Origin: Pyrobaculum neutrophilum V24Sta
GTDB taxonomy: Archaea > Thermoproteota > Thermoprotei > Thermoproteales > Thermoproteaceae
NCBI RefSeq assembly: GCF_000019805.1
Contig: NC_010525.1
Coordinates: 1,258,618-1,290,617 of the forward strand
Length of the DNA stretch: 32,000 nucleotides
Direction of reading: 5' to 3'
Position numbers and translations under genes: made by a program
Notes under the pieces: generated by a model
Seen by the model: only the letters and a program-made list of their open reading frames with translations
The model's database searches: none
What the model was told of the DNA's origin: nothing
Shown: piece by piece, positions 1,037 through 27,281 of the stretch
How positions within the stretch are numbered: position 1 is the stretch's first letter
Layout of the letters: each line of letters begins with the position of its first letter

Positions 1037-1108
1037 GGGCCGGTAGTCTAGCGGAAGGATGCCCGCTTGGCGTGCGGGAGATCCCGGGTTCGAATCCCGG
1101 CCGGTCCA
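1037..1108 (+). tRNA. tRNA-Ala (anticodon GGC), intronless, no encoded CCA
   Basis: Hand-folded cloverleaf. Acceptor stem is GGGCCGG/CCGGTCC with the G3:U70 alanine identity pair. Anticodon arm is CCCGC-TTGGCGT-GCGGG and T arm is CCGGG-TTCGAAT-CCCGG. Confidence 0.9.
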
Positions 1109-1169
1109 CTTCATTAAATCTGGTGTTCTAGACGGTAATCTATAAAAACAACCATAATTCAATCTATTT

Positions 1170-10992: not shown

Positions 10993-11093
10993 GGGCCCGT
11001 AGCTCAGCCCGGTTAGAGCGGCGGAGGACCCAGCCGGGTCTGCCGAGGCTTTTAACCCGTAGGTCGTGGGTTCGAATCCCACCGGGCCCGCCA
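10993..11093 (+). tRNA. tRNA-Lys (anticodon TTT) with one non-canonical intron (11025-11047, between positions 30/31); CCA encoded
   Basis: Acceptor stem GGGCCCG/CGGGCCC, D arm GCTC-AGCCCGGTTA-GAGC, T arm GTGGG-TTCGAAT-CCCAC. The BHB has central helix CGGC/GCCG, 3-nt bulges GGA and AGG, and inner helix GGACCC/GGGTCT. Cutting after the second bulge nucleotide gives anticodon arm GCGGG-CTTTTAA-CCCGT. Confidence 0.85.
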
Positions 11094-11705: not shown

Positions 11706-11817
11706 TGGTGGGGCCGCCGGGATTTGAACCCGGGACCACGTGGGCTCCCGCCGATGGCGGTCCCAAGCCACGCCTCAGGGGGCAACGCCCGATCCTACCA
11801 GGCTAGACGACGGCCCC
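11706..11817 (-). tRNA. tRNA-Pro (anticodon TGG) with two introns (11774-11791 at 25/26; 11745-11761 at canonical 37/38); CCA encoded
   Basis: Acceptor stem GGGGCCG/CGGCCCC, T arm CCGGG-TTCAAAT-CCCGG. Both introns sit in BHB motifs: central helix TAGG/CCTG with bulges ATC/AGG, and central helix CTTG/CGGG with bulges GGA/AGC. The spliced anticodon arm is CGTGG-CTTGGGC-CCACG. Confidence 0.8.
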
Positions 11818-11908: not shown

Positions 11909-12038
11909 TGGTGGGCCCGCCGGGATTCGAACCCTATCCCAACCCCCCTCGGCGGGGGGTTGACGGGACCACCCGCGTTCTTAGGCTGTTGCGGGTGTGC
12001 CGTGTAAGGCGGGCATCATGCCGCTAGACTACGGGCCC
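11909..12038 (-). tRNA. tRNA-Val (anticodon TAC) with two introns (11978-12002 at canonical 37/38; 11934-11963 inside the T stem at 51/52); CCA encoded
   Basis: Acceptor stem GGGCCCG/CGGGCCC. The canonical BHB has central helix CTTA/TAAG and bulges CAC/AAC. The T-stem BHB has central helix GTCC/GGAT, bulges CGT/AGG and inner hairpin CAACCCCCC/GGGGGGTTG. Predicted cuts restore T arm CCGGG-TTCGAAT-CCCGG exactly. Confidence 0.85.
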
Positions 12039-12111
12039 TGCCCAACTTTTGAGGGGGTTTTTTAAACTTGTCGCCGTTGTGCCTAAGGCAAGCGTCGGGC
12101 CCAGCGCGTGG

Positions 12112-16689: not shown

Positions 16690-17040
16690 ATGGCAGAAAA
16701 TAGAGATGTGGAAAGGGGGAGGAAGCTCCTCATACCGCCATTTCTATCGCCGCAGCAGGAGAAGAAGGAGCAGAGGAAGGGGGAGCGCAGAGTCAAGGTG
16801 AAGGCCGCCGAGGGCGTTGAGGAGGGGGTGGCCAAGATACCCACCGAGATATACGAGGCGTTGGATAAGCCCGAGGAGGTGGAGGTGGTGGCCCCAGGTG
16901 GCTCCTCCCACGAGAAGAGGCGGGTCTTCAAGGCGGTACACGACGGTAAAGTGCCGGGGGGCGAGATACACATCTCCGCCGAGGATCTCAAGGCGTTAGG
17001 CGTAGCCGACGGCACCGTTGTAACTGTGAGAAAGAGATGA
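16690..17040 (+). CDS. Hypothetical protein with a charged N-terminus and a beta-rich C-terminus, coupled to endA
   Basis: 116-aa ORF preceded by a TATA-like GTTTTAAAG box. Its stop overlaps the endA start (ATGA). Confidence 0.6.
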
Positions 17041-17588
17041 GCGGAGTTTTAAGAGGGCTCGCCGTAGTTGTCCAAGACGTAGAACTCGCCAGGGCGTTAT
17101 ACAGGGAGGGCTTCTACGGCAGATTCCTCGGCTACGACAAAGTTAAGCGAGACGAGGTGGACAAGGTATCTGCCCCGCTAATCCTAGCCCTATACGAGGC
17201 GCTCTACCTAGCCGAGAGGGGGAGGATCAAGGTTGTGGCTGAAGACGGAGCCGAGATCCCTCCGGAGAAGCTCGCGGAGCTTGGGAGAGGGATGATCAGA
17301 AACTTCGACGACGTATACAAGATATACAAGTACTTCCGGGACCTCGGCTACGTCGTAAAAAGCGGGCTTAAATTCGGCGCGTTGTTCTCGGTCTACGAAA
17401 AGGGCCCCGGCATAGACCACGCGCCGATGGTGGTGGTTTTTCTAGAGCCAGACAGGGGGATCTCGGCCACGGATATAACGCGTGGCGGCAGACTGGGCCA
17501 CAGCGTGAAAAAGACCTTTACCCTGGCGACTGTGCTCCGACAGACCGGAGAGGTGGTACTCCTCGGCTTTTCCTGGGCTAAGCTTTAA
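17037..17588 (+). CDS. endA: tRNA-splicing endonuclease, catalytic subunit
   Basis: [25 protein letters not shown]...DHAP...[11 protein letters not shown] matches the EndA C-terminal catalytic domain, including the Tyr/His/Lys triad positions. Confidence 0.85.
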
Positions 17589-25559: not shown

Positions 25560-27281
25560 ATGACAACTCAGGTGTTGGTCGAGAGCCCGAGGAGGCTCGT
25601 GGATCTGTCGAAATACAGCCTCCCCGAGAGGTACAGATCCACGCTCACGAACGAAAAGTGGCAACAGACGCTGAAGAGGCAGTTCGGACTACCTGAGCAC
25701 GCCAGGGTTGTCAAAGCCACGCTCTCTCTATGTCCCGTGTGTAACCGCAGGATACCGGCGGCGGTGTATGAGGAAAACGGCGCCATCTGGATGAAGAAGA
25801 GGTGCCCAGAACACGGCGTTTTCGAAGACCTCTACTGGGGCGACGCGGAGATGTACTACTACTTCCTTCAGTGGGATAGGCCCGAATATATTGCGAAGGG
25901 CCTCGCCAACCCCTACACCGACCTTGAGTTCTACAAGGACATGGGCTCCTGTCCAGAGGGTTGCGGGCTCTGTCCAGTCCACAAGTCCAACACGGTCTTG
26001 GCTATAGTAGACGTCACAAACAGATGCAACATGGCGTGTCCCGTCTGCTTCGCCAACGCCGGCGCCGCGGGCTACGTCTATGAGCCCACCATAGAACAGA
26101 TAGAGTACATGCTGAGGACTCTGAGGGCCCAGAAGCCCTGGGCTCCAAACGCCGTACAGCTCTCCGGAGGCGAGCCGACCCTTAGAGACGATCTGCCAGA
26201 GATCATAAGAATGGCGAAGAAGCTAGGCTTTACGCACATAGAGGTGAACACCAACGGCATTAGGCTAGCCAACGACATAGAGTACTACAAGGCGCTACTT
26301 GACGCTGGGCTCTCTACCTTGTATCTCCAGTTTGATACAATTGACGAGAAGAACGAAGGCGTGTGGAGACACAGGATGTATCACCCCAAGGCCTACAAAA
26401 TCATCAAGGAGCGTGTTATCGAGAATGCGAGGAAGCTGGGCCACCGCTCTATTGTGCTAGTTGTAACCCTGGCGAGAAACTATAACGACAAGGACCTTGG
26501 GAAAATCGTAGACTTCGCTATACAGAACAGAGACGTCGTTAGATGGATTAATATCCAGCCTGTTAGCTTTGCCGGGCGCGCCAAGCTTTACAGCAAGGAG
26601 GAGCTTAGGAAGTTCCGCATCACTATACCGGATACCATCATAGAGATAGAGAAGCAGACGGGCGGGGCGATAAGCAGGTGGGACTGGAGGCCCACCAACT
26701 GGCCAGTCGCCGTGGCCAAGATGGTGGAGGCGCTGACAGACTCTCCAAAGCCGCTGTTCTCCATGAACCCCATGTGCGGCGCCGCCACCTTCATATACTA
26801 CGACGAAGACGAGAAGCGCATATACCCAATCACCAAGCTAGTAGACGTAGACGCCTTCGAGAAAGGGGCGTGGGATGTCTACTACACGGCGGCGAAGGGC
26901 GGCGTGTACAAACACGCGGCCAAGGTTAAAGCTCTGAAGCTTCTGAAGGCCGTGAAGCACAAAAGGGTGAGGGATTTGATATACGACTTCCTGGTCAAGA
27001 AGGACTACGACTCGCTAGGCCGCTTCTTCTTCAACGTGGTGGGGATAGGCATCATGCACTTCATGGACACCATGAACTACGACATAGAGCGCGTCCAGCG
27101 TTGCGATATTCACTACGCGACGCCCGACGGCCGCGTCTTCCCGTTCTGTACCTACAACGTAGTAGGCCACCGCGAGAAGGTAGAAAGCTCGTTCAAGATA
27201 GACGCGAAGACCTGGACGAAGGTCACGGGGCTATCCCTAACCGGCTGGAATAGGCAACGCTTTGCGGAACTAAAGGCGTAA
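25560..27281 (+). CDS. Radical SAM protein, tetraether lipid synthase (Tes / GDGT-MAS)-like
   Basis: N-terminal zinc-ribbon-like CPVC...CPEHG, an extra Cys cluster CPEGCGLCP, the radical SAM motif CNMACPVC, and SGGEPTL. I chose ATG 25560, which follows TTAAAAAGTATATATC. The ORF-track start at 25413 overlaps the TrmB-family gene. Confidence 0.6.
   Translation: MTTQVLVESPRRLVDLSKYSLPERYRSTLTNEKWQQTLKRQFGLPEHARVVKATLSLCPVCNRRIPAAVYEENGAIWMKKRCPEHGVFEDLYWGDAEMYYYFLQWDRPEYIAKGLANPYTDLEFYKDMGSCPEGCGLCPVHKSNTVLAIVDVTNRCNMACPVCFANAGAAGYVYEPTIEQIEYMLRTLRAQKPWAPNAVQLSGGEPTLRDDLPEIIRMAKKLGFTHIEVNTNGIRLANDIEYYKALLDAGLSTLYLQFDTIDEKNEGVWRHRMYHPKAYKIIKERVIENARKLGHRSIVLVVTLARNYNDKDLGKIVDFAIQNRDVVRWINIQPVSFAGRAKLYSKEELRKFRITIPDTIIEIEKQTGGAISRWDWRPTNWPVAVAKMVEALTDSPKPLFSMNPMCGAATFIYYDEDEKRIYPITKLVDVDAFEKGAWDVYYTAAKGGVYKHAAKVKALKLLKAVKHKRVRDLIYDFLVKKDYDSLGRFFFNVVGIGIMHFMDTMNYDIERVQRCDIHYATPDGRVFPFCTYNVVGHREKVESSFKIDAKTWTKVTGLSLTGWNRQRFAELKA

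Follow-up and report, generated by a model that had tools for sequence, protein, structure and literature searches.

The tRNA-Val(UAC) gene of Pyrobaculum neutrophilum and its two predicted introns, one of them at the non-canonical position 51/52 of the T stem

tRNA genes with several introns, splicing motifs of the HBh' type, the specificity of (alpha-beta)2 splicing endonucleases and the transposition of introns are all established for the Thermoproteales (PMC4090602, PMC4033280, PMC3218864, PMC8450103). The sources on the multi-intron tRNAs of the Thermoproteales and of Pyrobaculum are Sugahara (2007, 2008), to the extent that these studies are represented in PMC4090602, PMC4033280, PMC3218864 and PMC8450103, and the presence of similar introns common to different isoacceptors is credited to Fujishima (2010) in PMC4033280, PMC4090602 and bioRxiv 10.64898/2026.10.13.758758. 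At non-canonical positions, relaxed motifs of the hBH and HBh' kinds are substrates of (alpha-beta)2 endonucleases (PMC4090602, PMC4033280). The surveys of multi-intron tRNAs included the genome of Thermoproteus neutrophilus (PMC3218864). The tRNA-Val(UAC) gene described here shows no difference in kind from the multi-intron tRNA genes of the Thermoproteales, with which it shares a canonical intron at 37/38 accompanied by one non-canonical intron, junctions of the BHB type and a host with an (alpha-beta)2 enzyme, and its two-intron arrangement is already known in kind. Pyrobaculum neutrophilum is presumably the Thermoproteus neutrophilus of those surveys.

Relaxed HBh' motifs are reportedly cleaved by crenarchaeal (alpha-beta)2 EndA, a finding said to go back to Marck and Grosjean in 2003, Tocchini-Valentini in 2005 and Yoshinari in 2009 (PDB 2ZYZ). 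The crenarchaeal HBh' substrates resemble the second intron of the present gene in having a central helix of 4 bp, a 5' bulge of 3 nt closed by an intron hairpin and a 3' cut site 3 nt beyond the helix, with both endonuclease subunits encoded by the host; cleavage of intron 2 itself is a prediction. Regarding its position, the list given in one passage of a review (20/21, 22/23, 25/26, 29/30, 30/31, 45/46, 53/54, 56/57, 59/60, 'etc.') does not name 51/52. A full-text search of the accessible literature returned no archaeal tRNA intron at 51/52.

Anatomy of the gene and of its two introns

The gene was analyzed within a window of 32,000 nucleotides of the P. neutrophilum V24Sta genome, and its parts are listed in Table 1 together with related loci. 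The limits of the gene and of both introns had been placed correctly by the first-pass annotation, which gave no strand; the gene lies on the minus strand. Its reading of the locus as a tRNA-Val(UAC) with a canonical intron at 37/38 and a T-stem intron at 51/52 is borne out by ARAGORN on the spliced sequence and by uninterrupted sites in a paralogue and in orthologues.

Table 1. Positions of the tRNA-Val(UAC) gene parts, neighbouring tRNA genes, splicing genes and related loci (positions within the window unless a genome and contig are given; G000 is P. neutrophilum)
Feature	Position	Strand	Evidence
Complete tRNA-Val(UAC) gene, 130 nt including encoded CCA (11911-11909)	11909-12038	-	Rfam tRNA 32.9 bits; ARAGORN tRNA-Val(tac) once both introns are cut out
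Exon 1, tRNA positions 1-37: acceptor 5' strand, D arm, anticodon stem 5' strand, anticodon UAC at 12006-12004	12003-12038	-	Sequence and ARAGORN
Intron 1, 25 nt, canonical 37/38, strict hBHBh'	11978-12002	-	Sequence reading; ARAGORN i(38,25) with intron 2 removed; sequence kept in all genus orthologues found
Exon 2, positions 38-51: anticodon stem 3' strand, variable loop UGGUC, T-stem C49 C50 G51	11964-11977	-	ARAGORN
Intron 2, 30 nt, non-canonical 51/52 in T stem, relaxed HBh'	11934-11963	-	ARAGORN; empty sites in paralogue and orthologues; 24-copy family; pairing statistics
Exon 3, positions 52-76: G52 G53, T loop UUCGAAU, T-stem 3' strand, acceptor 3' strand, A73, CCA	11909-11933	-	ARAGORN
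A/T-rich box TTTAAAAAA, likely TATA element, its centre about 24 nt before tRNA position 1	12058-12066	-	Sequence reading
tRNA-Pro(UGG), two introns (25/26 and 37/38)	11706-11817	-	Placed by eye against orthologues
tRNA-Lys(UUU), one intron in anticodon stem	10993-11090	+	Placed by eye against orthologues
tRNA-Ala(GGC), no intron	1037-1109		ARAGORN/Rfam
EndA catalytic (alpha) subunit gene, enzyme expected to cut both introns	17037-17588	+	PF01974 94.8 bits; TIGR00324 endA 94.3 bits (curated cut-off 59.6)
EndA beta subunit gene, 97 aa	G000:C1 ~26779-27072 = L063:1447-1740	-	PDB 2ZYZ chain A (P. aerophilum PAE0789), E 3.9e-46
tRNA-Ile(GAU) with copy of intron 2	G000:C1:1346993-1347112		30/30 identical intron
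tRNA 3' fragment with diverged 51/52 intron, outside window	G000:C1:1505117-1505184 = L004:1495-1562	+	
Intron family copy within this fragment	G000:C1:1505133-1505159		
Four tRNA matches of 62-64 nt with odd 5' ends, outside window	G000:C1 70204-70265, 560032-560093, 1131699-1131762, 1441525-1441587		Rfam
RtcB homologue in two pieces, genome G008	G008:C60:4473-7331 (L079 / L081)		

Removal of both introns leaves a sequence of 75 nt that ARAGORN calls as a perfect tRNA-Val(tac), with an acceptor stem of 7 bp, a D stem of three pairs and a U13-U22 mismatch, an anticodon stem of 5 bp and a T stem of 5 bp (CCGGG/CCCGG) closing the T loop UUCGAAU, followed by A73 and the encoded CCA. The anticodon loop CUUACAC has 7 nt with U33 and the anticodon UAC, giving the cloverleaf of a tRNA-Val(UAC). 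The T arm in this call is the CCGGG-TTCGAAT-CCCGG that the predicted cuts had been expected to rebuild. ARAGORN gave no call on the unspliced gene, nor when intron 1 alone was removed; with intron 2 alone removed, it called a tRNA-Val with a canonical intron of 25 nt, i(38,25). On the raw window this tool, which is blind to multi-intron genes, reported only tRNA-Ala. The Rfam tRNA model matched positions 12038-11912 (tRNA positions 1-71) above its cut-off of 29 bits, taking stretches of 26 nt and 32 nt as insertions.

The anticodon UAC occurs in only one of the 44 Rfam tRNA matches of the genome (1,769,823 bp, 99.98% complete), namely in this gene, with Val(GAC) and Val(CAC) encoded by separate genes. 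As the sole UAC tRNA among these matches, its precursor must be spliced for use. An A/T-rich box is found at a similar distance upstream in every tRNA-Val(UAC) orthologue and is likely to be an archaeal TATA element with a role as promoter.

Intron 1 lies one nucleotide 3' of the anticodon and reads CCCGC-CUUA-[CA^C]-GGC...GCC-UAAG-[AA^C]-GCGGG, where square brackets enclose the bulges and the caret marks the predicted cut after the second base of each. It is a strict hBHBh' motif with the central helix CUUA/UAAG of 4 bp, the 3-nt bulges CAC and AAC, the inner helix GGC/GCC and the anticodon stem as its outer helix, so that the earlier description of a textbook BHB holds in all its parts. An intron of nearly the same sequence is present at 37/38 in every tRNA-Val(UAC) orthologue recovered, from 15 other genomes of the genus, with one pair of the central helix lost in G004 and G010. 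This conservation indicates that intron 1 is old. Membership of a dispersed intron family was ruled out for intron 1, as BLAST against the genome found this single locus and no second copy; the sequence is unique to tRNA-Val(UAC).

Intron 2 reads G46-U47-C48-C49-[C50 G51^U]-CAACCCCCC-GCCGA-GGGGGGUUG-GGAU-[AG^G52]-G53. The exon-intron helix H comprises the 4 bp of GUCC/GGAU (one of them a G-U pair), the bulges are CGU and AGG, and the 5' bulge of 3 nt is closed by the helix h', a perfect 9-bp hairpin formed by CAACCCCCC and GGGGGGUUG around the 5-nt loop GCCGA. If both bulges are cut behind their second base, the product is a canonical tRNA. While the helix, bulges and hairpin were all as first described, the designation as a full BHB did not stand: no outer exon-exon helix h, which a strict hBHBh' requires, is possible at intron 2, since no pairs can be formed between U44/G45 and G53/U54. 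This makes the motif a relaxed HBh', and its 3' splice site does not lie inside a closed bulge.

As a G flanks both ends of intron 2, the junction in this gene is ambiguous by one nucleotide (50/51 or 51/52, with an identical product). The last base of the intron is A instead of G in the G005, G004 and G010 orthologues, which leaves 51/52 as the only possible junction. The uninterrupted site is found as GGTCCCGGGTTC in the paralogue tRNA-Val(CAC) of this genome and in the tRNA-Val(UAC) orthologue of G001, and as GACCCCGGGTTC in the tRNA-Val(UAC) orthologues of G002 and G006. Taken together, these empty sites and the three intron-bearing orthologues confirm the predicted boundaries of intron 2 at 51/52.

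Thermodynamic folding of the precursor gave no support, since the minimum-energy fold at 37, 85 and 95 C is not the splicing conformer. It was calculated at -68.1 kcal/mol compared to -50.8 kcal/mol for the cloverleaf with two BHB motifs (37 C), with the same ranking at 85-95 C; in it, the anticodon stem loses its 3' strand to pairing with intron 1, and the helix of intron 2 slips, with GUCC extended to GUCCCG. Such a discrepancy between the minimum-energy fold and the splicing conformer is often seen with pre-tRNAs and does not decide the matter.

Among the four tRNA genes of the window, three carry five introns in total, as had been counted at first pass, with those of tRNA-Pro(UGG) and tRNA-Lys(UUU) placed by eye. 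The adjacency of two tRNA genes with two introns each is likewise correct, but the dense concentration of introns that had been read into it is normal for the genus (PMC3218864, PMC8450103). In G004 and G010, the tRNA-Pro(UGG) gene that adjoins tRNA-Val(UAC) carries an intron of the 51/52 family and no intron at 25/26, and it follows that intron complements differ between orthologues. It should also be noted that four Rfam tRNA matches elsewhere in the P. neutrophilum genome, with their short length and odd 5' ends, suggest tRNA genes with introns in the 5' part across which the model cannot extend.

The 51/52 intron family and its distribution in the genus

A pattern search for intron 2 across 18 genomes of the genus detected 24 copies in four of them (three in P. 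neutrophilum, two in G005, nine in G004 and ten in G010), while a reversed control pattern had no match in the same 18 genomes. BLAST suggests two further diverged copies in G004. Family size is thus 2-3 copies in P. neutrophilum and G005 and 9-11 copies in G004 and G010. Near-identical introns at the same tRNA position in different isoacceptors of one genome are also what characterizes the transposition families of the Thermoproteales attributed to Fujishima (2010) in the papers that cite that study; compared with those clusters as so reported, the 51/52 family was followed within the genus only, at the copy numbers just given.

Every copy lies at 51/52, within the context ..[A/G]TCCCG^GGTTC[A/G]AATCCCGG. 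The host anticodons include those of Val, Ile, Pro (two), Arg (two), Asn, Ala, Gly and Cys as well as CAU (two), and the acceptor stems of the hosts differ. At least nine host genes are found in each of G004 and G010, and the host lists of this close pair appear to be partly different. In P. neutrophilum, where 16 uninterrupted sites with a compatible context are present, two copies are intact and the third is part of a fragment. The second intact copy, in tRNA-Ile(GAU), is identical to intron 2 of tRNA-Val(UAC) over 30 of 30 nucleotides, so that two isoacceptor genes within a single genome have like introns at one and the same site, as expected of a transposed-intron family. In G005 the intron is likewise found in both Val and Ile, with its two copies not identical to each other. 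Divergence between the copies of G005 and identity between those of P. neutrophilum point to orthologous occupancy followed by homogenisation in P. neutrophilum.

The pairing proposed for intron 2 is maintained in the family. Across 20 distinct copies, pairing at the 13 positions proposed was intact in 99.6% of cases, compared to at most 64% for register-slid controls. One pair of the hairpin shows a compensatory change from C-G to G-C, the altered intron being the one carried by three of the tRNA-Val(UAC) orthologues, and the pair that opens the central helix is variously G-U, G-C or A-U, with a single mismatch.

The fragment in P. neutrophilum consists of a variable loop, a T arm interrupted by the diverged intron TCGAGCCCCCGCAAGGGGGGCTTGGGATAA and an acceptor 3' strand CCAGGGC, followed by TTTTTT. 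Its exon part is closest to the 3' ends of tRNA-Thr, and the Rfam tRNA model made no call for it. There is no 5' half nearby, nor was a 5' half with GCCCUGG and a D arm found anywhere in the genome; the locus, which had been examined as a possible split or multi-intron tRNA, was treated as a fragment. The tRNA-Cys gene is intact elsewhere in the genome. A pseudogene is one possible reading of the fragment, a remnant of an integration event another.

Comparison of tRNA-Val(UAC) orthologues shows the 51/52 intron in P. neutrophilum, G005, G004 and G010, and no T-arm intron in G001, G002, G006, G012, G013, G014, G015 and G017. G003 (L013) and G007 (L016) have, instead of the 51/52 intron, an intron of 17 nt with a different sequence (AGGG..CCCCGGGAA) at 53/54. 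An extra intron at 29/30 is found in six genomes (G007, G012, G013, G014, G015 and G017) and in none of the others named here; the intron at 37/38 is present in all of these genes. Different non-canonical introns have been collected by the tRNA-Val(UAC) gene in different lineages.

In a nucleotide tree of RtcB, P. neutrophilum and G005 form a pair (99/96) that is sister to G012, G007 and G009 (100/99), which are without the 51/52 family. A pair of its own is made up of G004 and G010, and the backbone of the tree lacks resolution. The distribution of the family on this single-gene tree requires at least two changes, which could be one gain and one loss, two gains or a transfer. With at least two changes on this tree and such a backbone, the timing of the gain of intron 2 is not settled by one gene.

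Splicing machinery and interpretation

The gene for the catalytic alpha subunit of EndA lies within the window, only 5 kb from the intron-rich tRNA cluster. The beta subunit, encoded elsewhere, is also matched by the NCBIfam beta-subunit models, below their curated cut-offs. Its structural match, P. aerophilum PAE0789 (PDB 2ZYZ chain A), is taken here to be the structural beta subunit of the heterotetramer of that species. An RtcB ligase is encoded in the genome as well (592 bits). Judged from these matches, the host encodes a broad-specificity (alpha-beta)2 endonuclease of the kind that HBh' introns require. Of the RtcB homologues compared, that of G008 matches in two pieces within one open frame of 961 aa, compared to about 490 aa elsewhere, which suggests a large in-frame insertion, possibly an intein.

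It is considered most probable, at roughly 0.93, that the locus is a functional single-copy tRNA-Val(UAC) gene whose precursor would carry two protein-spliced introns. The precursor of about 130 nt would probably be transcribed from the TATA-like box, and the heterotetrameric (alpha-beta)2 endonuclease would then cut after the second base of each 3-nt bulge. At intron 1 the enzyme would recognise the strict bulge-helix-bulge built on the anticodon stem; at intron 2 it would recognise the relaxed HBh', in which G46-C49, from the variable loop and T stem, would pair with GGAU near the 3' end of the intron and the 9-bp intron hairpin would close the 5' bulge. RtcB would join the three exons, and the T stem CCGGG/CCCGG would form only after splicing and ligation. 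Expression of the product and its aminoacylation with valine are suggested indirectly, by its standing as the sole UAC tRNA and by the box kept upstream in the orthologues.

Two other readings would deny removal of the 30-nt segment. A decayed pseudogene, with the hairpin as an insertion that inactivated the T arm, would agree with the failure of ARAGORN on the unspliced gene, with an Rfam score just over the cut-off and with the tRNA-like 3' fragment elsewhere in the genome, which has a diverged copy of the insert and no 5' half nearby. Such decay is nevertheless very improbable for the sole UAC tRNA of a 99.98%-complete genome: its exons show no damage at all, orthologues keep the promoter-like box, and in 24 copies, whose host tRNA genes are otherwise intact, the insert preserves an exact BHB-type geometry, with a compensatory change. 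Slightly more remote still is retention of the segment in the mature tRNA as an extra arm from the T stem. Although the hairpin is predicted by folding to be very stable alone, retention would split G51 from G52 and break the universally required T stem of 5 bp; the flanking bases form exactly the 4-bp helix and 3-nt bulge geometry cut by the endonuclease, and the insert is missing from the same tRNA in G001, G002 and G006. We know of no tRNA with an arm at T-stem position 51/52, and this too was counted against retention.

With the reading as a spliced two-intron gene, intron 2 would be a lineage-specific member of a family that spread to position 51/52 of many tRNA genes sharing ..[A/G]UCCCG^GGUUC[A/G]AAUCCCGG, by intron 'transposition' as described for the Thermoproteales. 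The manner of this spread could be a different one, in that the 3' part shared by tRNA-Val(UAC) and tRNA-Ile(GAU) might stem from gene conversion or recombination via the conserved T arm and not from independent movement of the intron. From position 45 to the CCA, the two genes of P. neutrophilum are 97% identical over 67 nt, including the identical intron, whereas the orthologous Val introns of P. neutrophilum and G005 differ, as do the two copies of G005 mutually; moreover, all hosts are homologous around the insertion site, over at least 7 nt on its 5' side and about 15 nt on its 3' side. Against this, the acceptor 3' strands directly after the T arm differ among the hosts of G004 and G010 (CGGGCCC, CGGCGGC, CGGCCCC, CCGGTCC, CCGCCGC, CCGGGGC), so that only a short patch of intron and T arm could be shared and not whole 3' halves. 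Conversion is given a rather low but not negligible probability; it bears on the way the intron spread, leaves the nature of the feature untouched and agrees with the reading as a spliced two-intron gene. A similarly tentative view is taken of the idea that the 51/52 introns form a recently or still mobile family, strictly specific for the one T-arm target ..[A/G]UCCCG^GGUUC...

The main value of the finding is correct annotation, as standard tRNA finders in bacterial mode miss this essential tRNA-Val(UAC) and a naive reading would make it a pseudogene. Such introns are detected by default by tRNAscan-SE 2. The gene is also a clean example of a 30-nt intron that sits inside a tRNA stem and would still be removable. 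It also shows one intron family in occupation of the same T-arm site in many tRNA genes. If the family is indeed mobile, short-patch conversion via T-arm homology and reverse splicing would be the candidates for its spread, and it would offer a tractable natural system for the mechanism by which archaeal tRNA introns spread.
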